The notes: a model not told the origin generated them from the sequence alone. 21,054 nucleotides of DNA from Bacteroidales bacterium (GCA_030531335.1 JAUNNV010000029.1:1-21054), one strand, 5' to 3'. Shown: positions 2,482-21,054, counted from the stretch's first letter. Translations and numbers: made by a program.

Positions 2482-3849
2482 CTAATCGGCCTTTTCGGCA
2501 TTTTCAACCGTTTTCTCCTTTACCAAGTAAGAAGGCAGGTCGAGTCCTGCTTGGTTGAAAAGGTCGTGGAGCGGTGGCACACTCTTCATCAGTCCGGACA
2601 GAAAGTTGGCCGTCGAACCCTTTCCGTCGGCAGAGTTTCCACTGTCCCACACGGTGACGTGGTCGATGTTGACACCCTTGATGGCCTCGACCTGTGTGCG
2701 CACCAGTTCGGGAAGCTTTTCGGTGAGCAATAGCATGTAGGCCTTGTTGGCATCGCCTCCGGCAGCCTCGACCATCTGCTTGTAGCCGGCCGCCTGCTTG
2801 GTGAGCACCTCGTAGTAACCCTTGGCTTCGGCCTCCATGCGGGCATAGATGGCATCGGCCTCACCCTTGGCGTTGACACGAATCTTCTCGGCTTCGGCCT
2901 CGGCCTCGATGATGCGGCGTTTCTTCTCGATCTCTTGGCTTACGAGTACGTTTGCCGTCTGCGTGGAGCGTTCGCGCTCGGCGCGAGCCTCCTCTGCCTC
3001 GCGCTCGGCGGCGTAGGCCTCTTGTAGGGCCCGTGCCGATGCCACCTTCTCGGCAGCCGACGCACGGCGCAGTGCCTCGGCCTCCTTCTCGCGTCGGAAA
3101 GCCTCGGAGTTGGCAATATCCACCTTTGCGTTGTTCTCGCCCTGCACGGCCTGTGCGTTGGCTTCGGAGGTGCGTATGCGGGTCTCGCGTTCGGCCTCGG
3201 CCTTGCCTATGGCACCAATCTTGTCTTGCTCGGCCACACGAACCTTCGCCTCGTTGATGGCCTTGGCGGCGGCTTCACGGCCGAGAGCCTCGATGTAGCC
3301 CGACTCGTCCTTGATATCGGTGACATTCACATTGATAAGTCGCAAGCCTATTTTCTTCAGTTCCACTTCCACGTTGGCACTGATGCTTTCGAGAAACTTG
3401 TCGCGGTCGTTGTTCAGTTCCTCAATGCTCATGGTGGCGATTACCAGACGGAGCTGTCCGAACAGGATGTCGCGGGCGAGTTCCTGAATCTGCGTCGGCT
3501 TGAGGTCGAGCAGACGCTCGGCGGCGGCGTTCATGGATTCCGGATCGGTGGATATACCCACCGTGAAGCGGCTGGGCACATCGACACGGATGTTCTGGCG
3601 CGAGAGCGCATTGGTGAGATTGGCATCGATGGAAATGGGCGTAAGGCTCAGGTATTGATAATCCTGAATGATAGGCCACACGAAGGTGCCACCTCCGTGG
3701 ATGCACTTGGCCGACCCTCGTTTCCCGGTGGTGCCATAAACTACAAGGATTTTGTCGGACGGACAACGACGATAACGCTTGATGATGGAAGCGAAAAGGA
3801 TGATGCCGACGAACACTACGGCCACCATCAGATACATGGATTCTAACAT
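2482..3849 (-). CDS. Flotillin-family SPFH/Band-7 protein (YqiK/FloT-like)
   Basis: An N-terminal TM segment (MVAVVFVGIILFASII) is followed by an SPFH-like region. A long Ala/Glu/Arg-rich coiled coil follows (EAERETRIRTSEANAQAV...AEREAEEARAERER) and then a flotillin-type C-terminus. The gene is downstream of an NfeD-like gene, the classic yqiJ-yqiK arrangement. Confidence 0.85.
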   Translation of the reverse strand: MLESMYLMVAVVFVGIILFASIIKRYRRCPSDKILVVYGTTGKRGSAKCIHGGGTFVWPIIQDYQYLSLTPISIDANLTNALSRQNIRVDVPSRFTVGISTDPESMNAAAERLLDLKPTQIQELARDILFGQLRLVIATMSIEELNNDRDKFLESISANVEVELKKIGLRLINVNVTDIKDESGYIEALGREAAAKAINEAKVRVAEQDKIGAIGKAEAERETRIRTSEANAQAVQGENNAKVDIANSEAFRREKEAEALRRASAAEKVASARALQEAYAAEREAEEARAERERSTQTANVLVSQEIEKKRRIIEAEAEAEKIRVNAKGEADAIYARMEAEAKGYYEVLTKQAAGYKQMVEAAGGDANKAYMLLLTEKLPELVRTQVEAIKGVNIDHVTVWDSGNSADGKGSTANFLSGLMKSVPPLHDLFNQAGLDLPSYLVKEKTVENAEKAD

Positions 3850-3856
3850 GACAAAT

Positions 3857-3904
3857 ATGATAATTTTGAATTATGAACTTATGATAATTAAGAATTATGA
3901 CTTG
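3857..3904. repeat. AT-rich imperfect 24-bp direct repeat x2 in the nfeD-flotillin spacer
   Basis: atgataattttgaattatgaactt (3857-3880) is followed by atgataattaagaattatgacttg (3881-3904). About 19 of 24 positions are identical, including the shared blocks atgataatt and aattatga. Confidence 0.6.
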
Positions 3905-3945
3905 CGAAGTTTGATGATCGAATCGAACAATCTTAACTCAAAATA

Positions 3946-4518
3946 TTATATGGTGGATACTTTCACGGTGGATTCGTCGATGACAGCCTCTATGCGTACC
4001 TTGCGGCCTGTAGGAATATCGACACCGTCCGAAACGGCTGTGAGCTCATGGATGGAACCATGGACAGACACTTGTATCTGGCCTTTTCCCTGTGGTGGTA
4101 TGTGCAGATAGACATCGGCCACCAAGCCCACACAATCGGCCAGCGACCAAGCACCGTTGCGTTCGAGTTTGCGTGTCTGACGGAAAATGAATACGAACAA
4201 TGCCACAAACAAGGAGCCTGTGACCACCGACAAGAAACCCGCGAATAGATGGCTGCCGACCAAGGGGTAAAAGCAGATGCCTCCCCATCCGATGCCCATG
4301 AGAAGGGCGACGACATTCTTCACGCTGAACAGGTTGAGGCCACCCCCCATGTCGAGGGTGTTGTCAACGTCGAAGTCGGCATCGGTGTCGGTCGCATCGA
4401 TGCCAATGAAGGTTAGGATGGATTGGACGACAAACACGATGGTGGAAATGCCGGCAATCCACCAATAAAAACGGAGCATTGGGTCGAGCGATGCGTACCA
4501 GATAGACAATTCATTCAT
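3946..4518 (-). CDS. NfeD-like membrane protein (YqiJ/YuaF-like, C-terminal OB-fold), flotillin partner
   Basis: The ORF 3946..4584 is trimmed to MNELSIWY... at 4518. It has hydrophobic TM helices (WWIAGISTIVFVVQSILTF; LLMGIGWGGICFYPLVG; FLSVVTGSLFVALFVFIF). A C-terminal beta-rich region GKGQIQVSVHGSIHELTAVSDGVDIPTGRKVRIEAVIDESTVKV is typical of short NfeD. It lies immediately upstream of the flotillin gene. Confidence 0.7.
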   Translation of the reverse strand: MNELSIWYASLDPMLRFYWWIAGISTIVFVVQSILTFIGIDATDTDADFDVDNTLDMGGGLNLFSVKNVVALLMGIGWGGICFYPLVGSHLFAGFLSVVTGSLFVALFVFIFRQTRKLERNGAWSLADCVGLVADVYLHIPPQGKGQIQVSVHGSIHELTAVSDGVDIPTGRKVRIEAVIDESTVKVSTI

Positions 4519-4549
4519 GTTTTGATGTGTTTTCGTTGTTTTACGTTGG

Positions 4550-4557
4550 CAAATATA
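4550..4557 (-). promoter_or_regulatory. Candidate -7 promoter box (TATATTTG) for the nfeD-flotillin operon
   Basis: The minus-strand sequence ccc-TATATTTG-ccaacg lies about 32 nt upstream of the ATG at 4518. A TTTG lies about 20 nt further upstream at a -33-like position. Confidence 0.35.
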
Positions 4558-4591
4558 GGGACAAATAGATGAATTGCAAAACAAATCGGCA

Positions 4592-4669: not shown

Positions 4670-7108
4670 TCACATTTCGACCAAATGGAAGGAGGTCTGT
4701 CCTATCTGGAAGCTTTCGCCATGCCAGAGTTGATATTCCTTTCCAAGCGCGAGATATTTGCCCCCCTTCAAGGTGATGCCATCTACGGCACAGATACGCA
4801 CTACGCCATGCCTTTCATAAACCTTCACCTGCACGGGAGCCACGTCGCTTTGGAGATCCCAAGTGAGTTGCAAGGCGCAATCGACCGACTTGCCGATGGT
4901 GACAACTGTGTGAGGTGATGAGCGTAGCCATTTGTAGAGTGCGATGTCCATATCCTTGACAGATCCCGACACGTGCAGGAAAAAATGCTTGCCGACCGAC
5001 AAGGGTTGAGTCATGCACACCGCTATGGCCACACCATAGCCGATGAACACGAACAATGTCTTCATTAGTTCCGAAACCGTCTGTAGTTCCGCAACCATTT
5101 CCCAAAACAAAGTGCTCGCCACACCCACGACAGCCAGCATCAGCCACTGTCGCCTTTTGAGCCACAGGCGCGAATGATAGGTGGATACACAAGCGATGAC
5201 AAGTGTAGTCAGCACCCAAGGCAGCAGGTCGAACACAAACGAGCCCTCGTAAAGATTGAGCACGACAAGAGTGGCATTGTTGAAAACGAACACAAAAAAC
5301 ACGAGGACACACGCCACGGATGCCCGGACGAACTGCCCAAACAACCTTATGTGCCAACTATACTTGAACAACGTGAAGATTGACAGGGCAAAGGTAAGGA
5401 CGAAACCGATGATGCAACCAAATGTGGGAAGTGTATATAAACGTGAGGAGATGATGTCCAAATCCTGGGGGGAAAATGGGGATACACCTTGCTCGTGAAA
5501 GCCCAACAAGGAAATCGCGATACCATCGAAGAGGTCGAGAAAGAGTGAGCGAAAATGTGGATCCCACACAACCAACCAACCGATCGACGCCGCAGCGATG
5601 GCTACAAGGATCCAGCGTGTGAAGGGGGATGCGTTTTGAGGGTCGAGCAAGTTGGAACGGTTGTAATAATGCGAGCCATCGGGGCAATGCCTTCCATGTT
5701 CGGGGCAATGTTGTCCGTTTTCATTCCAACACTCCAAATGCATCACATGGCTGCATCTTGCCACGATACGGTCGCCCACGGCAAAGGGAGCCTTACAGTA
5801 ATAACATTCGTCGGGGATGGCGATGGCATTGATGCTCATGCGCCCCCCTGTATAGGTGAGGACATACTTGCGCTGAAAGATGACATAGCGTACAAATGGT
5901 TCCAACAGTTGCAAGGCCACGTAGGCGAGCAACAAGACCAGCAAGGCGATAATGATGCCGCGTGAAGCGATGTGGCCGGGCGATTTGTACCCACCGGTAA
6001 CGATTGGCACGTCAATGCTTCCGCACGCATATTCCTTGGAGCACCGGGCAATCAGGCTGTCGTTCCGGTCGTGGAAACTCAATTCCAGCCTGCGCGAACA
6101 GCCGTAGTAGATTTTCCCATCGGGATTCTCGAGCCGGATGGCGAAATCGGGATAGCCAATGCCGAAGGACGCGAAATTGTGTTTGCGCAACTCGACGGCA
6201 CTCAAACCATCGATGACACCCCCCCCCGATTGCTGGCAGAACACCTGCATCATATCCTTGTCGTCGGTGGAACTGTTTCCAGAGTCGGTCGAGGGAGTAC
6301 ACACGTAGCAAATGGCGGGTGCGGAAAACGAGGTGTCGGCGAGTTGTTGTAGGATTTGAGCCTGCACCCAGTAGTGGTCGGGGTCGAGAGGCGTATTGTC
6401 CGTCTCGTCATACACATGGCTGTCCGACAGTATCGCGATGGTGCGGTATGCAGCCGAGTCGAGAGGTGTTCCGGTGCCTTTGCGCAGTTTGCCGAGCATG
6501 AAGTACAAGGCACGATACACGTAAGGAGGAAGTTTGGTGTCGGACACACGATATTTGGAATTGCCGTTTACGTAATTGTCGATTACGTATGGCGAGACCT
6601 CCATGATAGGCGACAACTCGCCTTCGGAAAGGATGAACGAGATAAACACATTCCCATCGCCATACAGACGTATCAGCGAACGGATGTAGTCGCGTTCCTT
6701 TTCAAGCATGTCGGACGATTGGCACAAATCGACCATCAGCAGCAACTTGAGTCCCAACTTGGCATTTTCGGAAGCCACCACGTTGTTGAAGGAAACGACA
6801 TGTGGATGGGTCGATTCTGACCAAGGCACGAACTGGCGTTTCAGCTCCTTCACTGTCATGTGGATCAAGGAGCTGTCCTCAAGTAGGTATTTGTCCAAAT
6901 CATGGGTAATGTCCAACTCCAAGCTTATCTGTTTCACGTCGGTTGAAACGTTCATCGAGCGTATGGCCAAGGCATGGGTCTCGTGTTCGACCGAAGAAGG
7001 ATTCAACTCCGTGAACCGACTGCACGAGGCAAGTAGCAGAATGTATGGTAGCCAGACAGCAAACTGGCTGAAACGACGGAAACAACAAATTACAGACGGT
7101 TTCATCAT
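4670..7108 (-). CDS. Multi-domain membrane protein: lipoprotein signal + periplasmic (possibly vWA-like) domain + TM + cytoplasmic RING-H2 zinc finger + ~6-7 TM helices + C-terminal FHA domain; putative membrane E3-like ligase
   Basis: The N-terminus MMKPSVICCFRRFSQFAVWLPYILLLASCS has a lipobox. TM1 is IIIALLVLLLAYVALQLL. The RING-H2 pattern is C-x2-C-x13-C-x-H-x2-H-x2-C-W-x6-C-x2-H (ECYYCKAPFAVGDRIVARCSHVMHLECWNENGQHCPEH), with a Trp after ligand 6 as in E2-binding RINGs. Hydrophobic helices follow. The C-terminal GKSVDCALQLTWDLQSDVAPVQVKVYERHGVVRICAVDGITLKGGKYLALGKEYQLWHGESFQIGQTSF fits the FHA consensus (G..x..C.L....S..HA.I...........). Domain calls are motif-based only. Confidence 0.75.
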   Translation of the reverse strand: MMKPSVICCFRRFSQFAVWLPYILLLASCSRFTELNPSSVEHETHALAIRSMNVSTDVKQISLELDITHDLDKYLLEDSSLIHMTVKELKRQFVPWSESTHPHVVSFNNVVASENAKLGLKLLLMVDLCQSSDMLEKERDYIRSLIRLYGDGNVFISFILSEGELSPIMEVSPYVIDNYVNGNSKYRVSDTKLPPYVYRALYFMLGKLRKGTGTPLDSAAYRTIAILSDSHVYDETDNTPLDPDHYWVQAQILQQLADTSFSAPAICYVCTPSTDSGNSSTDDKDMMQVFCQQSGGGVIDGLSAVELRKHNFASFGIGYPDFAIRLENPDGKIYYGCSRRLELSFHDRNDSLIARCSKEYACGSIDVPIVTGGYKSPGHIASRGIIIALLVLLLAYVALQLLEPFVRYVIFQRKYVLTYTGGRMSINAIAIPDECYYCKAPFAVGDRIVARCSHVMHLECWNENGQHCPEHGRHCPDGSHYYNRSNLLDPQNASPFTRWILVAIAAASIGWLVVWDPHFRSLFLDLFDGIAISLLGFHEQGVSPFSPQDLDIISSRLYTLPTFGCIIGFVLTFALSIFTLFKYSWHIRLFGQFVRASVACVLVFFVFVFNNATLVVLNLYEGSFVFDLLPWVLTTLVIACVSTYHSRLWLKRRQWLMLAVVGVASTLFWEMVAELQTVSELMKTLFVFIGYGVAIAVCMTQPLSVGKHFFLHVSGSVKDMDIALYKWLRSSPHTVVTIGKSVDCALQLTWDLQSDVAPVQVKVYERHGVVRICAVDGITLKGGKYLALGKEYQLWHGESFQIGQTSFHLVEM
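6219..6227. repeat. 9-nt homopolymeric C run (G9 on the coding strand) inside the RING-FHA gene
   Basis: Plus gacaCCCCCCCCCgat, coding TCG GGG GGG GGT (SGGG) within QSGGGVIDGLS. Confidence 0.9.
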
Positions 7109-7110
7109 TG

Positions 7111-8076
7111 TCAGATGGTGGGATATTCGTTATCGTTAAATTGTGTCATGGACTTGTACTGCTTCGCCGCTTTCTTGGCGGCCTTCAGAGCGGCATATTT
7201 GCTCTTCATCATTGAAACAAACATCAGGATGATGGCTACGGCAGCCAAACTCATCAAGGAATCCTTCAGATGTTGCATCAGAGGCACATACTTCGCCTGT
7301 TGCACCTTGTCGGATTGCGCCTTTATCTCGGCGAACAACTGGCTGAGGCTGTCCATACGATTCTTTAGCGAAGGCACCAGCAATGCGGCTTGGGTGGCCT
7401 GTTGAAATGTTTGCTGCAATTCGGCAAAGGCGATTTGTTCCTTGGCTTGCAGCTGTTGCAGCAGAGGAGCCGTCTTGGCGGTCAGCGACAGCCTCTGGGA
7501 TTCCGACAGATATTGACTGTACTGATGCCGTTTCGATTCCAGCAGTTTTTCGGCCCGTGTAATGTCCTCCATCGCCTGCAGTCGGGCTTTTTGGGCTGCA
7601 ATCGAGTCCGACACGACTTGGAAGGTCACCTGAAAAGCCGTGAACTTGTCCATCAGAATCTCGTTTTCCACAATGTCTTGTTGTCGTACTTGCGTATAGA
7701 TATTCCATTGTACATTCACATTCTGCAACATCCGATCCAGTCCTTTTAATTCTGTCATCTTGGCCTGCGAAATACTTTTCCCGATATTGAGCAGTGTGGA
7801 TATGTATGCGTCCATCTCGCCCATCGTGGCGTTGGATTGTCCGCTTGGATGCGATGTCGTGGGTAAGTCTGAATAGACATCGAACTTTGTGGGCGTAGCC
7901 CATACAGACATGGTAGCCGATATGGTCACAAGCAGGATGGTGCAGAATGAGTAAACAACTTTTGTCACAATTGATTTCCTGTTATTGGCTTCGCCCATAA
8001 CAGACTGCGTCTCGGCATAACCAAGGTAGGCTTGCCTCTGCTCTTGGCTTGCGCTGTTATTCAAATTCACTGACAT
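7111..8076 (-). CDS. Bitopic/two-TM coiled-coil membrane protein, function unknown
   Basis: The ORF 7111..8232 is trimmed to the first Met lying near the stop of the upstream gene (MSVNLNN... at 8076). The start is uncertain; alternatives are 8232, 8115 and 7998 (MGEANNRK...). It has TM segments VVYSFCTILLVTISATMSVWA and LMSLAAVAIILMFVSMM flanking a long Gln/Leu-rich coiled coil. It lies 2 nt upstream of the RING-FHA gene. Confidence 0.55.
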   Translation of the reverse strand: MSVNLNNSASQEQRQAYLGYAETQSVMGEANNRKSIVTKVVYSFCTILLVTISATMSVWATPTKFDVYSDLPTTSHPSGQSNATMGEMDAYISTLLNIGKSISQAKMTELKGLDRMLQNVNVQWNIYTQVRQQDIVENEILMDKFTAFQVTFQVVSDSIAAQKARLQAMEDITRAEKLLESKRHQYSQYLSESQRLSLTAKTAPLLQQLQAKEQIAFAELQQTFQQATQAALLVPSLKNRMDSLSQLFAEIKAQSDKVQQAKYVPLMQHLKDSLMSLAAVAIILMFVSMMKSKYAALKAAKKAAKQYKSMTQFNDNEYPTI

Positions 8077-9277
8077 GTTTGAAGAAATATTTCGCTGCTG
8101 TGTCGAAAATGCCATACGCACGACGCTGTTCTTCGTTGTATATGCCTTTTTCCTCAACACCTTGCTTGGTGACGTTGATGATGTCGCGACCCATAAAGTA
8201 GATATCGCGTCGTTCCAACTCATTTTTCGCAACCAGATTTTGCGCCACCAGTTTGTCTAATTGACGTGCCGCTCGGACAAGTGCTTCGGGCGAAATACCT
8301 GTGCCGTAGAGCACGCTGCCCTCTTCCGTCAGCTCTACCGGGACGGCGCATTTCAGGGATTCAATCGAATCCACGTAGTTGTTGTAACTGTCGCGCACCA
8401 TATTCACATCGGCACATGACGATTTCGTCTCTATCGGTTGGAATTTCGACAACAGAAATTCTTGATGTTGCTTGAACACGCCGACCTCCTCGGCGGATTC
8501 CACCTTGCCTGAAGGACATATCTGATGGAGCTTCCGATACGCTTTCCGGATATCCATCAACTTGGCTTTCATGACAGCCAACGCCTCTTGTTGACCATGG
8601 CAAGGATTGCGGGCCAATGCCACCCGACAAGTAAGGTCAAGATCGTGATCGAATACTATCTCGTATTCCCGTCCTTTCTGAGTGTCTTTCAACACATCCA
8701 CCACCATGATGTTGCGAATGCGCAACGTCACATCGGATGCCTCCGGATTCACCTTGAACCGTTGTGTCAAAATTTTCTGACTTAACTTCGGCAATGTCTG
8801 AGGCGAGTCTGTCGCACTTGTCGGCAGATAGGTAGCAGGACAGGCAATGGTGAGCGAGGCGGAGTTCGGTTCCACCCAGGCATTGATAAGGTGATGGCGG
8901 CGTTTCTTCCGATACGACTTATACACCGATTCTCTTAGGTAATATTTCGAATTAGGCTCTACCAGCACCTTATATTGCAATTTCTCGGCATGAAGCCGAC
9001 GTTTGCCAAGAAACGGATGGGTAAACACATCGTTGTAGGATACGTCCTGACGGAAAGCCATGAAATCGCGATTGCCAGACAACGTGAGAACCAACTCGTC
9101 GGCAGCCTCTTCGAAAGCAAGCGTCAGGTCAAGCTCCAAGCCTTTGTCGTCGAAGGCAATCTGTATTTTCTCCTGATAAGGCGTGTCGGCATCCACACGC
9201 ACGTTTTTGGTCTCTTGAGCCTGTGCCAGGGCAGCACAGCAGGCCATGAAAAGGCAGAAGAATTTAGTCTTGGTCAT
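8057..9277 (-). CDS. Secreted hypothetical protein (406 aa) with N-terminal signal peptide
   Basis: ATG at 9277; MTKTKFFCLFMACCAALAQAQ-ETKN is a signal peptide. A long ORF with mixed composition and several Cys. It overlaps the E2 gene end by 14 nt. No recognisable catalytic motif. Confidence 0.65.
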   Translation of the reverse strand: MTKTKFFCLFMACCAALAQAQETKNVRVDADTPYQEKIQIAFDDKGLELDLTLAFEEAADELVLTLSGNRDFMAFRQDVSYNDVFTHPFLGKRRLHAEKLQYKVLVEPNSKYYLRESVYKSYRKKRRHHLINAWVEPNSASLTIACPATYLPTSATDSPQTLPKLSQKILTQRFKVNPEASDVTLRIRNIMVVDVLKDTQKGREYEIVFDHDLDLTCRVALARNPCHGQQEALAVMKAKLMDIRKAYRKLHQICPSGKVESAEEVGVFKQHQEFLLSKFQPIETKSSCADVNMVRDSYNNYVDSIESLKCAVPVELTEEGSVLYGTGISPEALVRAARQLDKLVAQNLVAKNELERRDIYFMGRDIINVTKQGVEEKGIYNEEQRRAYGIFDTAAKYFFKHVSEFE

Positions 9278-9860
9278 AATATATCCAATTGTTTGGTTCT
9301 CCTTGTGTCCGAACCCAATAGGCTACTTTCAAATCCTCTGGGTAAGGAGGTTCGGGCAGTGCATGGTAGATTTCGTAGCGCAGATACAGTGCGATGCGTT
9401 CCACAGCCCATGCCAAACTGCTGTGTGTGTTGGGCATGTTCACACACACACGTCCTGCCAGGCTACCATGATACCCTATGTTGGGATGCCAAGGCAACGT
9501 GTCGCCCACAAAACGGAAGCAAGGCATAGCATCTACCTGAGGATAACGTTCGGGAAGTTTTATCTCCATCCGAAACTCATGGGCGAAAATAGGACTGCCA
9601 TCCACATTCACCCCACAGATACATTTTATAAAATAGTCTATCGAGTAGGCCGTAGGGATTCCTTCAGGGGTGGCATCGACCACTTGCATGGCGATGTCGT
9701 TGCGTTGTTTCACAAAGGCGGCAAGCTGCTCCCACTCGTAAAACAGTCGGTGTGCGCGTCCTCGAAGAGGCTTGTTCTGAAACCAGCTTGTCCCGGGCGA
9801 AGTCAAGGAAAGGGGTTTACCCTGGGAATGGATCGGGGATGAGGAAAATTGTGTCGCCAT
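9264..9860 (-). CDS. Ubiquitin-conjugating enzyme (E2/UBC-fold) homologue
   Basis: The UBC core motif is ...FRMEIKLPERYPQVDAMPCFRFVGDTLPWHPNIGYHGSLAGRVCVNM... (YP.xP, HPNI, G...C). It can be laid alongside UbcH5 ...[34 protein letters not shown]. An N-terminal RLFYEWEQL helix is present and LPEPPYPEDL lies downstream. The ATG at 9860 overlaps the Ubl gene end by 44 nt; an alternative TTG start lies at 9806. Confidence 0.8.
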   Translation of the reverse strand: MATQFSSSPIHSQGKPLSLTSPGTSWFQNKPLRGRAHRLFYEWEQLAAFVKQRNDIAMQVVDATPEGIPTAYSIDYFIKCICGVNVDGSPIFAHEFRMEIKLPERYPQVDAMPCFRFVGDTLPWHPNIGYHGSLAGRVCVNMPNTHSSLAWAVERIALYLRYEIYHALPEPPYPEDLKVAYWVRTQGEPNNWIYYDQD

Positions 9861-10140
9861 TGTTCACATTATAGTCGGCAAGCGTCTGTTCGGTTTTCCC
9901 AATGCGCGGCCGCATCACGCGAATCTCGTGCACGACCTCGTCTTCTTTCCCAAAGAAATAATCGAGGGGTGCTCCTGTGCTGTCGATGGAGGGAAAGTCG
10001 AATATCAGTCGGCCATCTTGTCCGGTTGAATGTTTCAGGTTGTTCATCAATGCGCCCAATGGGAGTTGCGGATTGATGACGCGGAACTTCACCTTTTTGT
10101 CCTTATAGACAATGTTAATGAAAAAATCGTCTTGGTGCAT
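9817..10140 (-). CDS. Ubiquitin-like (beta-grasp) protein ending in a C-terminal Gly
   Basis: The C-terminal 22 residues TLADYNVNNGDTIFLIPDPFPG match ubiquitin 55-76 [22 protein letters not shown] position by position (T,L,D,Y,N,I/V,T,I/L,L,I/V, terminal G). The stop codon follows the Gly directly. RLIF and a KVKFRVI beta-hairpin lie upstream. The ATG at 10140 is 23 nt after the tssF stop. Confidence 0.75.
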   Translation of the reverse strand: MHQDDFFINIVYKDKKVKFRVINPQLPLGALMNNLKHSTGQDGRLIFDFPSIDSTGAPLDYFFGKEDEVVHEIRVMRPRIGKTEQTLADYNVNNGDTIFLIPDPFPG

Positions 10141-10163
10141 GTTTCGTCAATGATGGTTGATGG

Positions 10164-11927
10164 TTATTTGCTACGCGAATCTAAGTCAATCTTCACTTGG
10201 ATGGGGCAGATGCCCGTAGTACGCACCTCCATGAGCCTTTGTAGGTGATTTTCGATACTGGCAAAATGTTTTCCCAACGCACGTTTCACATACATGTTGT
10301 CGTGGAGCACGATACCTACCACGATGCAATAAGCATGATAGCTACCTCGTGTAAGCACCTGCTTGTGCGTACGTATGGAGGCTATCATTTCCTGCTCTAC
10401 ATTGAACCGTGTGGCCAATTCCTGATAACAAAACAACTTTAGATCTGTTTCGGTGACAAGCCGGTCGTCGGTGGCTATGAAGTAGCGTGTAGCCGTCCTC
10501 ATGGCTTCCTCGGACAACAATTCGTCGTATCCTGGTTGAGGAATCGTCACTTGATGGGATTTGGACTGGTCGAAACCTGGGGGTACCACAAACACGGCAT
10601 CGGAGGTGAGCACACTGTTCACTACAGCTCCGTTAGTGGTCAGATAGCCGACATTGAGTGAAGTGTTTTCTGGGCTTTGTCGAAGGGTGTCGCCCCAACT
10701 ATCCTTCGAGCGTTCGTGAGGAATGCCGGCAAACATCAGATAGACACCCTCGTGCGAGGTTCGCAAATGTGGATGCGTGTGTTGCGACAACTCCTTCAGG
10801 TTGTTGCGCAGGTTGTGCATCACCATGTCGGTATATTCGTTGCCCATGGCCTGAAACGCATAATAGTCGGATGTGTATTTGTCGATGAGGCCCGACAACA
10901 ACCTGTGCAGCCTCCCCTCGTTGAACCTGTCGGCACCTATGCGCCGCACCTGTAGCCGGACATTGCCTAATAGTTGGTCCTCGTCGGGACGTAGCAGATG
11001 AAGAAACTGCCCATTGTTCTTGTCATCGATACGCTGTATAGGCGCATCGGCCGAGAGGGTGGCTGTTTTCACTTCGGCGTTCACTATCAAGGCGATGTTG
11101 ACAAGCAAATCGCTCTCTTTGAAAGAAAAGTTGTCGTCGATGCCGTCGAACTCGAAGGTGAGTTCCATGCGATCAATGGCATCGATATCGTCCATTTCAT
11201 CTACGACATACAGCAATAGGTTTTGTCGGGCATACAAATCCAGGGCGCAGAAGTTGCGATAGGCAGCCATGCCTTGGAACACGTTGCCCGAACGTACGGC
11301 TTGCGACTGATTGTAGAGCAACGTATCAAGCGAGAAACAGTCGGCACACGGCAGATTCGCAAAGTCCCACGGTGCGATGAGGGGTATTTCCCTATCGCTC
11401 ATGCTTACACGCAGGCCATGGAAATCCTGGTTCTTCAAGGCAAACGCAAGGCCTTTTAGGCTTTTCACCTTGTGTGGAAAGAACATATTGACTTGCCATC
11501 TCCTTCCATCCACGCGCCTCAGCCCATCCATCTCCACCTGTATGGCTTTGGTCTTGAGCAAGGGGATGAAGTTGAAGTTGTTGTTGTCGGTTCCTTTTAA
11601 GATGAATCTCATGGACGAATCGACATCCATTTCCGTCACATTGGGCATCAGAGCCAATTGCACGACGGCTGTGGCTGGAATGGCCTTGACTGGTTCGTTC
11701 ACGCAAAGCATGTTCTGGAACTCGTCGAGCAGCTCCGTCCGCAATGCCTCCAACTCGTTGTCCGACTCGTTGAATTGATAGGCCAGTGCCGTAATCAGGA
11801 ACTTGAACAGCGGATCCGAATCCAGTCCCTCAAGACTGTCGCTTCTGTTGTTGCGGTGCCAAATATCCACACATTGGGCCATCAGCTCCTTGGCGCGTTG
11901 TCTTATTTCAAATATGTTCTGTCTCAT
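10164..11927 (-). CDS. tssF: TssF-like baseplate protein (phage gp6 / baseplate-J family)
   Basis: 587 aa, directly after the gp25-like gene. The N-terminal block DPLFKFLITALAYQFNESDNELEALRTELLDEFQNMLCVNEPVKAIPATAVVQL resembles the TssF signature DP.VERLLEGFAFL...L.DEFPE...LL..L.P...P.PS..IVQF. The size and gene order (tssE-tssF) fit. Confidence 0.75.
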   Translation of the reverse strand: MRQNIFEIRQRAKELMAQCVDIWHRNNRSDSLEGLDSDPLFKFLITALAYQFNESDNELEALRTELLDEFQNMLCVNEPVKAIPATAVVQLALMPNVTEMDVDSSMRFILKGTDNNNFNFIPLLKTKAIQVEMDGLRRVDGRRWQVNMFFPHKVKSLKGLAFALKNQDFHGLRVSMSDREIPLIAPWDFANLPCADCFSLDTLLYNQSQAVRSGNVFQGMAAYRNFCALDLYARQNLLLYVVDEMDDIDAIDRMELTFEFDGIDDNFSFKESDLLVNIALIVNAEVKTATLSADAPIQRIDDKNNGQFLHLLRPDEDQLLGNVRLQVRRIGADRFNEGRLHRLLSGLIDKYTSDYYAFQAMGNEYTDMVMHNLRNNLKELSQHTHPHLRTSHEGVYLMFAGIPHERSKDSWGDTLRQSPENTSLNVGYLTTNGAVVNSVLTSDAVFVVPPGFDQSKSHQVTIPQPGYDELLSEEAMRTATRYFIATDDRLVTETDLKLFCYQELATRFNVEQEMIASIRTHKQVLTRGSYHAYCIVVGIVLHDNMYVKRALGKHFASIENHLQRLMEVRTTGICPIQVKIDLDSRSK

Positions 11928-11943
11928 CGTTATGCACCCTTCA

Positions 11944-12387
11944 TTAGTTCCATACGTTTATGATGTTGCTGTACTGAAAAGGCTCGTTTGTATCGCCCAA
12001 CAGGCCGGTTATTTCCACCAATACTTGCCGTTGGTCGCGGCGGTAGTTCATTACTACCTTTGGTGAGAGCAACCGAGGCTCATACACCTCGATGCTATGC
12101 TTCAGGTCGGAGGCGAATGTCTGTAGGTTCTTCGAGGAGCCGGAAACTTTCTTCTTGTATATTGGATTCCGGCTGTCACGAGAATCGAACACCGTCCCCT
12201 CGTTCTCGTCGAAAATCTCAAATCTCAACGTGGAGAACACAAAGCCATAATCCGGATCGATGGGCAAAGAGCCCAACGGTGTGTCCATCAGGAGCTGTAG
12301 CGAATCCCTGACCGATTGCTCCAACCCGTTCGACTGATGGAGGAACCTGCCCGACACTACCTGTAAAGGACTTTGCAAGTATTTCAT
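11944..12387 (-). CDS. tssE: TssE / gp25-like baseplate wedge protein (GPW_gp25 family)
   Basis: 147 aa. SVRDSLQLLMDTPLGSLPIDPDYGF and IEVYEPRLLSPKV match the gp25/TssE motifs (..NL..LL.T..G.....P.fG / I..fEPRL). The ATG at 12387 overlaps the upstream stop in an ATGA. Confidence 0.85.
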   Translation of the reverse strand: MKYLQSPLQVVSGRFLHQSNGLEQSVRDSLQLLMDTPLGSLPIDPDYGFVFSTLRFEIFDENEGTVFDSRDSRNPIYKKKVSGSSKNLQTFASDLKHSIEVYEPRLLSPKVVMNYRRDQRQVLVEITGLLGDTNEPFQYSNIINVWN

Positions 12388-13589
12388 ATCAATGGTGTGA
12401 AAACATCTTCCGGCTGATGTTCCTCCTTGGCCACGAGACCAGACAGCGCATTGAACAATGCAGGGTAAAGTTCCTGATATAGCCTATCGTGCAATGCTTC
12501 GTACAGCACTTCTTTCAGCTTCGGACGAAGTCGATCGTCCACGTATGCCTGCAGTTTTTCCGTGATTGTCGCGGTCAGTTCAGGCATCACCACGTCGCGA
12601 AGTTCCATGCGGATTTTTTCGTCTATTTGCTGCTTCAATTGTTCAAGAAGTTGTGTGTACAACTCTCTCTTCAGCGCCTCCACATCGATGTGGCGACTTT
12701 CCGTCACCACATCGTCCATGGACAGTAGCAAGGCGTTCATGAATTCTTTGAGCCACGACAGGTAGGCTCGGATATGGTTTGTGTGAGGCACGCGGCGAGG
12801 GTCGGCGGCCAGCTCGCGCGTGGGTTCTTGTCCTGAGCCCTGCCGAAGGACTTGTTGGCCTCCCAATCCCAATCGGATGTGGTAATCCAAGGCTTGATCC
12901 GTTTCGCGCAACAGTCGCACAAGCTCCACTACCGACTCCTTGCCGGTGAGGCTCTGTAGCCGGAAACACAGATGTAACAAGGTGCGTTTGCCGTCACCAT
13001 CCTCCATGTTGCGGTGGGTAGCCAGCTTCGTGAGTAGTTCCACATACATGCTTACGAACTCTCCGAAAGCCTTGTGCGAGGCTGTCGAGATCATGGGAGG
13101 CACATACGAGGCATCCACATTGAGCAGGTCGCCCTCTACGTAAAGCCTCTTCAGCGGCAGTACGTCCAAACTTTCGTCGGCACGTTCCAACTCGTCCAGC
13201 GAATGCAGCGAGAGCTCGTAAACGGGAGCCTTGTAGGGTATGCCATCGCGTTCGAAACAATGTGTTTTCCCATTGGCAGGGCCGACGCACACAAAACATT
13301 CCGGCAACGGTTGCGACACGATGGTCAGCGTGAGGTCGTCATCTACGCTGAGCACGGCCCCCGATGGCAACAATGCCGTAAGCCTCAGATTGTTCATCTC
13401 GAAGGTGTTGCCCACAAAAGCGCCCTCAACGTGTAGTGGGTACATGGGGAGAATGCCCATGCCGACACTCCCTATGGCGGCGCGGAGCAACAGTTGCTGA
13501 CGGTTGTCGAAGTCGTGTTGCTGATGGACGAAGACCCCAGAGGTGAGCTCCATCCCTGGTTGCCAATGTATATTTGCGTTGTAATACAT
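12384..13589 (-). CDS. tssK: TssK-like baseplate protein (N-terminal shoulder domain) with C-terminal coiled-coil region
   Basis: The N-terminus NIHWQPGMELTSGVFVHQQHDF...LLRAAIGSVGMGIL resembles the TssK start (W.EGM.L.PQHFQQ.D...LAR.G...WG). 401 aa, 4-nt ATGA overlap with tssE. The C-terminal half is helical/coiled-coil, so this is an atypical TssK and only moderately confident. Confidence 0.55.
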   Translation of the reverse strand: MYYNANIHWQPGMELTSGVFVHQQHDFDNRQQLLLRAAIGSVGMGILPMYPLHVEGAFVGNTFEMNNLRLTALLPSGAVLSVDDDLTLTIVSQPLPECFVCVGPANGKTHCFERDGIPYKAPVYELSLHSLDELERADESLDVLPLKRLYVEGDLLNVDASYVPPMISTASHKAFGEFVSMYVELLTKLATHRNMEDGDGKRTLLHLCFRLQSLTGKESVVELVRLLRETDQALDYHIRLGLGGQQVLRQGSGQEPTRELAADPRRVPHTNHIRAYLSWLKEFMNALLLSMDDVVTESRHIDVEALKRELYTQLLEQLKQQIDEKIRMELRDVVMPELTATITEKLQAYVDDRLRPKLKEVLYEALHDRLYQELYPALFNALSGLVAKEEHQPEDVFTPLI

Positions 13590-13631: not shown

Positions 13632-14432
13632 TCATTCATAGTCCTTAATTACGATATTGTAGTTCATGATTTTCCCTTCCTCCGACTTGCCCTTGGCTCC
13701 TGCCTCAAACAGGCAGTCGAAAGGAATGAACCGGCTGTGCACAAATGCAAGCATACGTTCCCATCGTTTGGTAAGGTCGGCGTATGCGGTGGCTGTCAGA
13801 CCATCCACACAAATGTCGTAATGCACTTTTTGCATCCAAAAGCGTGTGTTGTCGCATTCGTTGTACGCCGACAAACGCATCCGCACCGGATAACCCGTGA
13901 CAACGCTCAGCAATGATTTTACAAACGACAAGTTGCCACGGAGTTTGGCCACGTATGGCAGCAACACCGCCACCTTGCGCACATACTCGTCCGTTTCCGC
14001 CTCCAAGTCGAACTTGTAGGATGTTTTTAACACGAATTCGAGCTTGCGGGCCAGCAAGTCGGCCACGATGTGTTCCCGCTTCAGCTTCTGCCTGAACATG
14101 AACGAGTCGATGGGTAGGAAAGTTTCTGACAGTGTCCTTATCCGCTCATGCAACTGTTGGGCAAGCTGTTTGAAATCGCCTTTTCGTTTCCTTCCGAAAC
14201 GGTCGGATGCCTTCAGCTCATCCTCCGATCCTAAAAACAAGGGAGGCAGATAGTGTAGGAAGCCGTTGCGCGAAAGCGATACGATTGCTTCCTTCGGATT
14301 GATGGACAACACATCCGGCGCATAGTTCCTGCTGAAGGAACCTTTCTGATAGGCCAGCCACTTGTCTTCCAGCTCTGGATACAAATAGTTGAGCAACAGT
14401 TCCGCACTTATCTCGTGCCTGTCGGTTGTCAT
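13632..14432 (-). CDS. Hypothetical cytoplasmic protein (266 aa), translationally coupled downstream of E1
   Basis: The ATG at 14432 overlaps the E1 stop (ctATGAcaa). There is no signal peptide or TM segment and no motif I can name. It lies 42 nt upstream of the tssK-like gene. Confidence 0.6.
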   Translation of the reverse strand: MTTDRHEISAELLLNYLYPELEDKWLAYQKGSFSRNYAPDVLSINPKEAIVSLSRNGFLHYLPPLFLGSEDELKASDRFGRKRKGDFKQLAQQLHERIRTLSETFLPIDSFMFRQKLKREHIVADLLARKLEFVLKTSYKFDLEAETDEYVRKVAVLLPYVAKLRGNLSFVKSLLSVVTGYPVRMRLSAYNECDNTRFWMQKVHYDICVDGLTATAYADLTKRWERMLAFVHSRFIPFDCLFEAGAKGKSEEGKIMNYNIVIKDYE

Positions 14433-18469: not shown

Positions 18470-19768
18470 TCACCATTCGATTTTCTTACCCAACACATAG
18501 TATTTCATGTCGTTGTACCAAAGTACTCCCTCGCCATTGGCTACGGTGTAACTGGTATAATATGAATTGTCCTTGGGCCTGGGATTTATCAATTCAGGCT
18601 GTGAGAACCATATCGGCTGCTCGGCTCCCGGCACAAATTGTCCTTTGAGTAAGAAGAGTGGCCCACGATTTTGGTATGCCGTAACGTCGTTGTAGTCAAA
18701 GGTGTTGTGGACAATGGCGAAGTACTTGCCGCTGAACGCCTCTGGCCCCTCCCAGTCGTATAGAGGGCAGGGAGAGCGGGGATGTGGAATGGGCTTGCCT
18801 CCATCCTGGAAACAGAGGATCTTGGGCCTCGACCATGTTCTGCCGTGGTCGGAACTGACCGACCATACAGGAGAACCTACAGAGCTACGCATCATGGCAA
18901 AGAGACGCCCGTCGGGGAGACCTACGATGGCCGCTTCTTCGATTGCAGGCCCCTCCTTGATGCCATAATTGGTCGCTCCCACAACCTGGCTGACGTCAAA
19001 GGCATCCTTGTTGGTGTTGAAATAGGATATCTTGATGTCTTCTATCTCCGGGTCATCATCAATGTTGTCGAACTGCCAGAATTCCACGCGGCATTGCTTT
19101 TTCTCGTCGTAAGGGGCACGGCCATGGCGTGAGCAGCCTACGATGAACTTGCCACCCTCGCCCAACCTCAACGGACGTTGCCAGTTGCACCATTCCGCAG
19201 GCACGAGCGGGTCGGGAGAATCCATATCCATGCGTGGCATCGCTATGCTCTTCGGCTTGCTCCAGGATAGTCCGGCATCATCGGAATAGGCACCAAACAA
19301 GGCACCGTGATGAATCTTGTCTCCATTGACTTGCTGGTTCCATAGCAGGTAAAGACGACCGCTCTTCGACAGCATGGGTTGTTGCCAACTGGCCAATGGA
19401 CGAGGATTGGACCGTGTCTCAGAACCTTGCAGAAGAACTGGCTTCGACCAGGTCTTGCCGCCATCCATGCTTCTGGAGAACACGATGTGGTGGTCTGGTT
19501 CTCCTTCACGTGTGGCCTGGGTCCAAAAACAGTAATGCATGCTTCTGGCCTCGTCGTAAATCACCTGTATATGGTCATTGTAGGTGTCGCCCCTAAGTTT
19601 GGGATCCGCCTTTTTCCAGTCTTGGGGCTGTTTGGGCACATAGACCACATAGTTTGGTTTGGTGGTCATAATATCTTCTTTTTGCTTGTCCTGAGCTGCT
19701 GCTGATGTGACCATGGACAGAAGAAGACAAAGCACGATAGCATTACGCGGATAGTTGCATGTAATCAT
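18470..19768 (-). CDS. Secreted BNR/Asp-box repeat beta-propeller protein (sialidase-superfamily-like)
   Basis: Signal peptide MITCNYPRNAIVLCLLLSMVTSAAAQ. There are three Asp-boxes matching S-x-D-x-G-x-T/S-W: SMDGGKTW, SDDAGLSW, SDHGRTW. No FRIP motif was seen, so sialidase activity is not implied. Confidence 0.7.
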   Translation of the reverse strand: MITCNYPRNAIVLCLLLSMVTSAAAQDKQKEDIMTTKPNYVVYVPKQPQDWKKADPKLRGDTYNDHIQVIYDEARSMHYCFWTQATREGEPDHHIVFSRSMDGGKTWSKPVLLQGSETRSNPRPLASWQQPMLSKSGRLYLLWNQQVNGDKIHHGALFGAYSDDAGLSWSKPKSIAMPRMDMDSPDPLVPAEWCNWQRPLRLGEGGKFIVGCSRHGRAPYDEKKQCRVEFWQFDNIDDDPEIEDIKISYFNTNKDAFDVSQVVGATNYGIKEGPAIEEAAIVGLPDGRLFAMMRSSVGSPVWSVSSDHGRTWSRPKILCFQDGGKPIPHPRSPCPLYDWEGPEAFSGKYFAIVHNTFDYNDVTAYQNRGPLFLLKGQFVPGAEQPIWFSQPELINPRPKDNSYYTSYTVANGEGVLWYNDMKYYVLGKKIEW

Positions 19769-19783
19769 ATTTCCTATTGTGAA

Positions 19784-21054
19784 TCAGGATTTCTTTAGGT
19801 AATCCTTTAAGCCATTAAGCCCCGCATTCAGCACAGGCTCCCAGCCGTTTGATGCCAGGTTGAGCTGGTAGGTGTGCTGTGCACTGTTCGAAACCAATAT
19901 GTTGCCATTGCTCGCCACGTCCCAGAGGACACGCGGACCGGCACAGCCATTCCTGTTAAAGAGTTTCTGGCCACTGTCGAACACTTTCACGTTGTCGTCC
20001 TCGACAGTCACTGCACCGCTGGTGATGACGGGTAGGAGTTCGGCACCGAGTGCCGTCGCGAAGCTGTTCAATACGCCACCCTCCTTATCCTTGGGATCGT
20101 TCTTAAACTCTATCCCATTGATGAGGTCATTCCATTGTTCATCATTGGCAACGTCACCTATTATCGGATGTGTTATTTGATCGTTGTATATATCCAATAT
20201 GGCGACAAACACCGTTCTTTTCATTCCTTTTTTGTCGGAAAGTATGGAAGAACCAAGGATTTGCTCCCGACCTTCTTTCGAATTAAATGTTGCTACAAAC
20301 AGTGGCCAATTATTGCTCCCTTGTAATTTTTTCTCTCTTTCGAGCTGCTGATTGATTTTTTTCAACAATTCATCTTTAGTATGTTCGTTGATGTAGTCAA
20401 GATGGCGCTTTAAAGTATCGAAATTATTTTTAAATTTTCTCAAACTTTCCGTGATTTCAATATTGTTTTCTTTACCATCTGCTGGTTGTAGCTGTGGACA
20501 TAGGTTGTCTGTGATATAATTTAACAGTTCTTCAGATGATTTTGTTTTCAGTGTTTGTATTGTGGACTGGCTTGTGTCATTTAGCTTGTTTTCTTCTGAA
20601 TTAAAAAAAGACAGATGAGTGTGAAATTCATTGGATAGTTTTCTGATTGTTTCTTCTGAAAATTGGATCTCTTCATAGAATGTGTTTATCACACGAGTAG
20701 CCTCTATCAACACGCCCTCTATCGTAGAACCCAAGTCTTTTGCCGCTTTTTCATCCTTATTCATGTGGTTCTTCCAACCTTTGGAAGCGTAGTTCGACAT
20801 CAGGGATGTGGGAATCATTGCCTTGCCTTTTCCTGCCGTCATGGTGACATTGCGGTTCGACTTGATGGACAGAGTCCCCTCTACGGGTCGCATCAGCACT
20901 TCCCACAGGCTACGCAGGAACGACAGATCGGAGAGCTTGGTGGGGTCGAATGTCAGGAAATTCTTCGCCTGTTGTGTGGCTATTTGAGCTGCAATACCTC
21001 CCGCGATGGATCCGAGAATAACGCCAACAATCTCACCGCTACTTGGATCATTCG
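19784..21054 (-). CDS. Large hypothetical protein, 5'-truncated by window end; glycine-zipper TM-like segment; candidate effector/toxin
   Basis: The frame of ORF 19784..20899 stays open to the window edge (…NDPSSGEIVGVILGSIAGGIAAQIATQQAKNFLTFDPTKLSDLSFLRSLWEVLMRPVEG…). GVILGSIAGGIAAQIA is a GxxxG-type zipper. The central coding region, about 20300-20700, is conspicuously AT-rich. Confidence 0.65.
   Translation of the reverse strand, partial: NDPSSGEIVGVILGSIAGGIAAQIATQQAKNFLTFDPTKLSDLSFLRSLWEVLMRPVEGTLSIKSNRNVTMTAGKGKAMIPTSLMSNYASKGWKNHMNKDEKAAKDLGSTIEGVLIEATRVINTFYEEIQFSEETIRKLSNEFHTHLSFFNSEENKLNDTSQSTIQTLKTKSSEELLNYITDNLCPQLQPADGKENNIEITESLRKFKNNFDTLKRHLDYINEHTKDELLKKINQQLEREKKLQGSNNWPLFVATFNSKEGREQILGSSILSDKKGMKRTVFVAILDIYNDQITHPIIGDVANDEQWNDLINGIEFKNDPKDKEGGVLNSFATALGAELLPVITSGAVTVEDDNVKVFDSGQKLFNRNGCAGPRVLWDVASNGNILVSNSAQHTYQLNLASNGWEPVLNAGLNGLKDYLKKS

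Follow-up and report, generated by a model that had tools for sequence, protein, structure and literature searches.

A conserved Bacteroidales type VI secretion locus with a predicted, built-in ubiquitin-type conjugation cascade

Gene content and organization of the locus

The stretch of DNA analysed here (hereafter the window) is a whole contig of 21,054 bp, JAUNNV010000029.1, from a Bacteroidales metagenome-assembled genome (GCA_030531335.1); the host is a gut or rumen Bacteroidales bacterium. It carries the baseplate genes of a type VI secretion system (T6SS), interleaved with genes for a ubiquitin-like protein (Ubl), an E2 conjugating enzyme, an E1 activating enzyme and a putative RING-type E3 ligase. 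Sequence comparisons identify the family to which this locus belongs as a conserved, widespread T6SS variant of Bacteroidales with a predicted built-in cascade of the eukaryote-like ubiquitin type.

Between about 21 kb and 2.5 kb, nearly all real genes lie on the minus strand (Table 1). Transcription runs from a partial VgrG-like gene through genes for a BNR/sialidase-like protein, a 597-amino acid (aa) protein, a DUF4280 PAAR-like protein, an RRF-like protein and a ThiF-type E1; these are followed by genes for the 266-aa and 401-aa proteins, gp25/TssE, the 587-aa and 107-aa proteins, the 198-aa UQ_con protein and the 406-aa protein, and finally by those for a bitopic coiled-coil protein, the 812-aa RING protein, NfeD and flotillin. 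From the 597-aa gene through the RING gene, neighbours overlap or lie at most 58 nt apart, and these genes are therefore read as one operon. In particular, the TssK (401-aa) and TssE (147-aa) genes overlap by 4 nt, the TssE gene is separated by 16 nt from that of the TssF-like 587-aa protein, the latter by 23 nt from the Ubl gene, and the Ubl and E2 open reading frames (ORFs) overlap. Ten genes form a same-strand block, in the order E1, TssG, TssK, TssE, TssF, Ubl, E2, 406-aa, 295-aa and RING-FHA. For five of these ORFs the initial annotation had given coordinates, sizes and order, which we recovered unchanged, all on the minus strand.

Table 1. Genes of the window in order of transcription, with the evidence for each assignment and the number of loci in which it was found
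Feature	Coordinates	Strand	Evidence and occurrence
VgrG-like spike protein, C-terminal part, at least 423 codons	19784..21054	-	ORF open at contig end
Conserved protein, 597 aa	16639..18432	-	No Pfam/NCBIfam match; between VgrG and PAAR-like genes; 42 loci
PAAR-like tip protein (DUF4280 / IglG-like), 129 aa	16240..16629	-	DUF4280 1e-30; IglG 7.7e-10; 58 loci
RRF-like accessory protein, 241 aa	15475..16200	-	Pfam RRF 4.8e-12, 46.5 bits, above gathering threshold; 45 loci
E1 Ubl-activating enzyme (predicted), 349 aa	14429..15478	-	ThiF 1.4e-51; true start Met101 of a 449-codon ORF
TssG/gp7-class wedge protein (predicted), 266 aa	13632..14432	-	Fold, size, position
Divergent TssK, 401 aa	12384..13589	-	Family-wide TIGR03353 matches
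TssE / gp25, 147 aa	11944..12387	-	GPW_gp25 3.8e-10; TIGR03357 2.6e-7, score below curated cut-off
TssF/gp6-class wedge protein (predicted), 587 aa	10164..11927	-	Structure-model match
Ubiquitin-like protein (Ubl), 107 aa	9817..10140	-	Free C-terminal Gly, codon 9820-9822
E2 (UBC-fold) conjugating enzyme (predicted), 198 aa	9264..9860	-	HPN residues 125-127; Cys139 codon 9444-9446
Presumed periplasmic protein, 406 aa	8057..9277	-	N-terminal signal-like sequence; no family match; 74 loci
Bitopic protein, 295 aa	7111..7998	-	Hydropathy, start position; 65 loci
RING-FHA membrane protein, 812 aa	4670..7108	-	RING-H2 5669-5806; FHA 4673-4987; putative E3 and membrane-complex core

The four baseplate wedge genes

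The TssE assignment of the 147-aa protein is solid, as judged by its profile matches. The other three baseplate proteins are more divergent. The 401-aa protein has no Pfam match and, taken alone, a faint match to the NCBIfam TssK model TIGR03353 (E 9e-4). When 31 diverse members of its family were scanned singly, all 31 matched TIGR03353 (best E 1.6e-14), each below the 100-bit equivalog cut-off, and for this reason we read the protein as a divergent TssK. Its C-terminus (12384-12398) ends in a near-invariant F-x-P-L-I-COOH motif.

Sequence profiles gave no TssF match for the 587-aa protein, and an NCBIfam scan of its TssF-like family was likewise empty. Its structure model matches TssF of 6n38 with a Foldseek E-value of 2e-14, and the protein is thus classed, by structure only, as a predicted TssF homologue. 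Both proteins had been called strong TssF and TssK candidates at the outset; the identities stand, but not from profile searches with the window sequences, since a structure model was needed for TssF and a family-wide scan for TssK.

No match to the Pfam or NCBIfam TssG profiles was obtained among the window proteins. The 266-aa protein nevertheless appears to be of the TssG/gp7 class, judging from its fold, its size and its position just upstream of tssK, and a distant relative of it provides a weak bridging match to PF06996 (TssG). PDB sequence-profile searches with the TssF-like, TssK-like and TssG-like families found no baseplate protein, and PHROGs returned faint baseplate-wedge hints at most. 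With the 266-aa protein counted as TssG, the set of four wedge genes is full and runs tssG-tssK-tssE-tssF.

This bears on the reading that the initial annotation had given to the region. The order tssK-tssE-tssF followed by Ubl-E2 was correctly described; the conclusion that tssG is missing or replaced was not confirmed, as the product of 13632-14432 appears to be of the TssG class. That this protein might be TssG had been offered as a fallback, which its wedge fold, size, place upstream of tssK and weak PF06996 bridge support. The Ubl and E2 genes had been said to lie where tssG is expected, but tssG follows tssF in proteobacterial T6SS-i only; in T6SS-iii of Bacteroidota, tssE-tssF forms one gene group and tssG-(tssN)-tssK another (PMC10781749). 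The summed length of Ubl and E2 (305 aa), which had been likened to that of TssG, is a coincidence.

Ubl and E2 are separate genes with their own motifs

The Ubl chain ends in PDP[FI]PG, directly followed by the stop codon, in 74 of 75 loci (PDPFPG in the window), the lone exception being probably a cut sequence. Since the chain already ends at a free Gly, no processing would be needed before activation. Relatives of this Ubl match beta-grasp families alone, namely Rad60-SLD (8 of 9 relatives, best 2.4e-4), ubiquitin (7 of 9, best 0.005) and YukD (4 of 9, best 0.002), all of these Pfam matches being weak and under gathering thresholds. The last strand, TLADYNVxNGDTxFLI (beta5-like), aligns with the corresponding 16 residues of ubiquitin.

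With UQ_con, the window E2 gives an E-value of 4.8e-6 and 26.7 bits, for a gathering threshold of 27, and the same family is matched by 24 of 28 E2 relatives. Among these 28 diverse proteins WHPNI (124-128) and Cys139 are invariant, and in a PDB profile search the family profile aligns with human UBE2K across HPN...Cys. On these features Ubl and E2 are judged to be genuine genes, replacing nothing. A frameshifted tssG, split into the two ORFs, was considered and is ruled out as both are separately conserved and carry their own motifs, in agreement with what had been concluded before from the window sequence. A sulfur-carrier role of the ThiS/MoaD type is ruled out by the presence of the E2 and of the RING protein.

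E1 and RING-FHA proteins complete the predicted cascade

The E1 start was placed at the internal methionine given in Table 1 because conservation begins there. Two features of the resulting protein are invariant, an NCYAC (CxxC) motif and, 16 residues further on, a Cys (Cys166, 349-aa numbering). In the PDB it is most similar to active adenylation domains from the eukaryotic proteins UBA7, UBA1 and SAE2 (4e-26 to 1e-21), with MoeB and ThiF behind.

The 812-aa protein matches zf-RING_2 at 1e-3. Among its relatives, Prok-RING_1 and zf-RING_2 are each matched by 22 of 23, and an FHA domain is detected in 9 of 23 (best 9.7e-8). The RING ligands C435, C438, C452, H454, H457, C460, C468 and C475 are invariant, in the arrangement C-x2-C...C-x-H-x2-H-x2-C...C...C. 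By hydropathy, the protein has a lipobox-like N-terminal end, a domain in the periplasm and seven transmembrane (TM) segments; the RING comes after TM1, the FHA domain after TM7, and by these positions both are predicted to be cytoplasmic. We regard the protein as a putative E3 ligase. Because the E1 and RING-FHA genes share the operon of Ubl and E2, the predicted cascade is complete. The initial annotation had recognized Ubl and E2 as independent genes, which is upheld, and had overlooked that the E1 and the membrane RING-FHA protein belong to the same conserved operon. Scans with Pfam, NCBIfam and PADLOC found no deubiquitinase or peptidase family among the proteins of the conserved block.

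Conservation across Bacteroidales

With one genome per GTDB species as the search set, a profile-guided scan identified 73 loci, and hence at least 73 species representatives. Carriers include Prevotella, Xylanibacter ruminicola D31d, Alistipes, Parabacteroides distasonis An897, Bacteroides mediterraneensis, Millionella, Mediterranea, Caecibacteroides and other Bacteroidales. In all of the 73 genome loci that are uncut by contig ends, the order and strand of the ten genes are constant, with identities of 33-74%, and further metagenome loci show the same arrangement. The location of the Ubl machinery inside the baseplate gene block, as initially described for the window, is thus conserved in 73 genome loci. 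An exact-match search with the window 587-aa protein had as its sole return a 2.3-kb contig.

All ORFs of the related loci were then searched with the window proteins. Over 77 loci, TssF was found in 77, TssE in 76, Ubl in 75, E2 in 74, the 266-aa protein in 73, and E1 and the RING protein in 71 each. The flanks are variable and comprise ClpV, a TssB-sized gene, TssC (PF17541), Hcp/TssD (PF17642), VgrG, PAAR-like and RRF-like genes. ClpV together with the Bacteroidetes-type TssC (PF17541) and TssD (PF17642) is present in the related loci L003/L004, L015 and L078. An extracellular contractile injection system instead of a T6SS is ruled out by TssK, ClpV and the Bacteroidetes-type TssC/Hcp. A gene for a PEGA-domain protein (362-496 aa; 5327-6415 in L003) occurs in 55 loci and, in most related loci, lies immediately upstream of E1; since neither the window nor L002, the locus closest to it, has this gene, at least two sub-architectures can be distinguished.

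Median identities to the window proteins are 72% for Ubl, 62% for the PAAR-like protein, 51% for E1, 50% for E2, 42% for TssE, 40% for TssF, 36% for the TssG-like protein, 32% for TssK, 31% for the RING protein and 26-29% for the two envelope proteins (406 and 295 aa). Ubl is thus the best-conserved protein of the locus. The values for Ubl, E1 and E2 (72/51/50%) exceed those of the baseplate proteins (32-42%), which indicates strong purifying selection on the cascade. Clustered at 90% identity, the E2 family of gut and rumen metagenomes gives 830 clusters, and a scan of IMG/VR viral contigs with the E2 profile found no relatives.

Neither TssN-R nor TssJLM was matched by Pfam or NCBIfam models among the window proteins, and TssN-R was also without match in the precomputed Pfam annotation of the L002-L004, L078 and L079 flanks.

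Comparison with known systems

We compared the locus family with T6SS-iii as described by Russell 2014, Coyne 2016 (PMC4714493) and Bongiovanni 2024 (PMC10781749); this type, with its TssN-R complex, has been stated to be the sole T6SS type in Bacteroidota (PMC10781749). Several features are shared: related loci carry the Bacteroidetes-type TssC (PF17541) and Hcp/TssD (PF17642), ClpV and VgrG, the tssE-tssF pair is kept, the predicted tssG is next to tssK, and the hosts are Bacteroidales. In contrast to T6SS-iii, no TssN, O, P, Q or R match was found in the window or in related-locus flanks, TssF and TssG are beyond the reach of sequence profiles, and the tip is a DUF4280 PAAR-like protein. 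Also unlike T6SS-iii, the operon adds E1, Ubl, E2, the 7-TM RING-FHA protein, two envelope proteins, the RRF-like protein and often the PEGA protein.

Other secretion systems offer partial parallels. The threonine-phosphorylation pathway of T6SS-i (Fha1/TagH, PpkA/PppA) likewise has an FHA protein associated with the membrane complex, with a probably regulatory role; here, however, FHA and RING are parts of one 7-TM protein, and the conserved block holds no kinase or phosphatase. With the Francisella T6SS-ii, the family shares a PAAR-like tip of the DUF4280/IglG type and highly divergent baseplate proteins, whereas its sheath and tube are of the Bacteroidetes type and an IglI-like match (E 0.029) is negligible. 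Francisella is not known to have a Ubl cascade.

Concerning the cascade itself, Burroughs, Iyer and Aravind reportedly catalogued prokaryotic E1-E2-RING-Ubl systems in 2011, a work which is said to be the source of the Pfam family Prok-RING_1. Like such operons and the Caldiarchaeum cascade, the present family has a TM RING protein (Prok-RING_1), an HPN-bearing E2, a eukaryote-like E1 and some YukD-like signal in Ubl; unlike prokaryotic operons of this kind, it is interleaved with T6SS baseplate genes and has no JAB peptidase. The Bil system (BilABCD) also combines a bacterial Ubl with an E1 and an E2. The target to which Bil attaches its Ubl is a protein of the phage tail tip, a structure with an evolutionary relationship to T6SS baseplates and spikes. 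Our locus differs from Bil in having a RING E3 (putative) and no deubiquitinase, and in being a T6SS operon, not a defence island. PADLOC gave weak matches to E1-E2 and E2 of the cyclic oligonucleotide-based antiphage signalling system (CBASS) only, with no Bil or deubiquitinase match, in a 2023 version that may lack Bil models. A literature search returned no paper joining a T6SS or contractile injection system with an E1/E2/Ubl cascade; the 2011 work of Burroughs and colleagues lay outside this search, and the Ubl-RING operon may already have been noted in silico.

A proposed conjugation cascade directed at the secretion apparatus

From gene content and order, conservation, catalytic motifs and predicted topology, we infer an active Ubl-conjugation cascade directed at the secretion apparatus, to which we assign a probability of about 0.6; any specific target of Ubl would merit much less than this. 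The E1 would adenylate Ubl at its C-terminal Gly107 and then form a thioester with it, Ubl would be handed on to Cys139 of the E2, and the RING of the 7-TM RING-FHA inner-membrane protein would serve as E3. The RING-FHA protein and the two envelope proteins (406 and 295 aa) appear to stand in for the TssN-R membrane complex, and this membrane complex is probably novel. The final acceptor of Ubl would be a lysine in some component of the apparatus where baseplate and membrane meet; candidates are TssK, the RING protein itself and, in the 295-aa protein, the invariant cytoplasmic tail rich in Lys. Such a modification might build or gate the docking of the TssK-containing baseplate on the membrane complex and thereby control assembly or firing, with the FHA domain as a possible phospho-threonine-dependent input.

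A precedent exists in T6SS-iii, where TssN recruits TssK and the cytoplasmic ubiquitin-like domain of TssN has been proposed as the baseplate dock (PMC10781749). Here there is no TssN match, and yet a free Ubl with a weak YukD-like signal is encoded. We favour a scheme in which the beta-grasp dock would be supplied in trans and installed covalently, and in which assembly would as a consequence be conditional. A stronger version, in which Ubl modification is an obligatory, built-in step of assembly or firing and the RING-FHA E3 of an unrecognised membrane complex ligates Ubl at the baseplate/membrane interface as a TssN-like dock in trans, is put forward tentatively and could well prove wrong.

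Several points weigh against a cascade directed at the apparatus. Conjugation is predicted from sequence and the acceptor lysine is hypothetical, the beta-grasp fold of Ubl is assigned from weak matches, and the catalytic Cys of the E1 by position only. A conserved block without a deubiquitinase would be unusual for a regulatory cycle, even if such an enzyme is not strictly defining. A search of the 10 kb on each side revealed no Ser/Thr kinase or phosphatase that could be a partner of the FHA domain. Genes for TssN-R could lie at other places in these genomes, or some of the five may have no models in the profile libraries. Finally, sheath and tube genes are absent from the window's own contig, because it ends within the VgrG-like gene.

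Among the alternatives, the one that fares best is that the cascade acts on cargo, Ubl tagging effectors, VgrG, the PAAR-like protein or the 597-aa protein, or being itself delivered. The operon does adjoin the VgrG, PAAR-like and conserved 597-aa genes, Ubl is extremely conserved, and the lack of a detected deubiquitinase would be consistent with a one-way modification of exported cargo. However, the genes for Ubl and E2 are flanked by tssF and those of the membrane complex, away from the variable effector region, the putative E3 is an integral 7-TM protein fixed in the membrane, and the cascade is constant while effector regions differ among loci. We consider a cargo-directed cascade rather unlikely.

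The invariance of the catalytic features argues against a second possibility, that Ubl, E2, E1 and the RING protein were co-opted as structural subunits and that no conjugation takes place. Beta-grasp scaffolds that act non-covalently are known, as in the ubiquitin-like domains of TssN and EccD (PMC10781749), and the absence of a deubiquitinase would fit such a role. Yet the Ubl Gly, the HPN motif and Cys139 of the E2, the adenylation domain and Cys of the E1 and the Zn ligands of the RING are all invariant over a divergence of 30-50% identity. As relics with a purely structural role would not be expected to keep every catalytic feature, this explanation seems improbable.

It is still less probable that an anti-phage ubiquitination module of the Bil or Bub type has ended up in the T6SS locus by chance, its function being separate from secretion. 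Antiviral roles have been predicted for uncharacterised bacterial E1/E2/Ubl/RING operons (PMC10557695), and the E1 is weakly similar to CBASS Cap2 models. Against this, the cascade genes are interleaved with the baseplate genes, E1 before tssG and Ubl-E2 after tssF, and co-occur with them in every uncut locus; moreover, neither a Bil match in PADLOC, nor a JAB deubiquitinase, nor relatives on the viral contigs of IMG/VR were found. Lastly, a TssG-less baseplate in which Ubl-E2 occupies or replaces the place of TssG, as the missing TssG profile match in the window and the position of Ubl-E2 directly after tssF might suggest, is scarcely credible in view of the 266-aa protein, with its TssG/gp7 wedge fold and the weak PF06996 link of its distant relative, encoded upstream of tssK like tssG of T6SS-iii and kept in 73 loci.

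Complete bacterial E1-E2-E3-Ubl cascades are regarded as rare and generally predicted to be antiviral (PMC10557695). The locus family described here challenges both this antiviral-only view of the cascades and the T6SS-iii-only view of Bacteroidota. If Ubl modification were indeed obligatory, the family would represent a new Bacteroidales T6SS subtype and the first non-defence, non-metabolic role for a complete bacterial E1-E2-E3 cascade. Several carriers can be cultured, namely Xylanibacter ruminicola D31d, Parabacteroides distasonis An897, Bacteroides mediterraneensis An793, Millionella massiliensis, Mediterranea massiliensis and Caecibacteroides pullorum, which makes the role of a bacterial Ubl cascade outside anti-phage defence directly testable. 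The eukaryote-like character of the E1, E2 and RING proteins is of interest for how ubiquitin signalling first evolved, and the system is relevant to interbacterial competition in the Prevotella-rich communities of gut and rumen.

Envelope, spike and accessory genes

The 295-aa envelope protein consists of a signal or TM segment, a coiled coil, a C-terminal TM segment and a Lys-rich cytoplasmic tail with an invariant YPTI end. This C-terminus (7111-7125), Y-P-T-I-COOH, resembles the F-x-P-L-I-COOH end of the TssK-like protein, and both motifs could be ligands of one shared domain (for example FHA) or mark acceptor sites of Ubl.

At the other end of the window, the truncated VgrG-like protein has homologues of 1140-1176 aa with Phage_base_V in L002 and L062. 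Over its C-terminal extension (19500-21054) the GC content drops to 0.42-0.45, compared to about 0.52 elsewhere, pointing to recent exchange of an effector or extension domain. The BNR/sialidase-like gene (18470-19768), located between the VgrG-like and 597-aa genes, encodes a protein with a signal peptide. Found on the window contig only, with no counterpart in L002, a locus 74% identical, the gene could have been inserted recently or be a passenger. The 597-aa protein is rich in Thr, Gly and Lys, with repeats resembling a coiled coil or beta-helix, and may be a spike adaptor or extension.

The RRF-like gene, which places a ribosome-recycling-factor family member inside a secretion cluster, occurs on either strand in related loci; in the Alistipes clade, it lies on the opposite strand. 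Directly downstream of the RING-FHA gene and on the same strand, an NfeD-flotillin (SPFH/Band 7) pair occupies positions 2482-4584. As it is not conserved in related loci, this pair is probably unrelated to the system. On the plus strand, a 782-codon ORF (34-2382) shows a weak ComEA-like helix-hairpin-helix match (E 6e-4) and is overlapped by a 596-codon antisense ORF.

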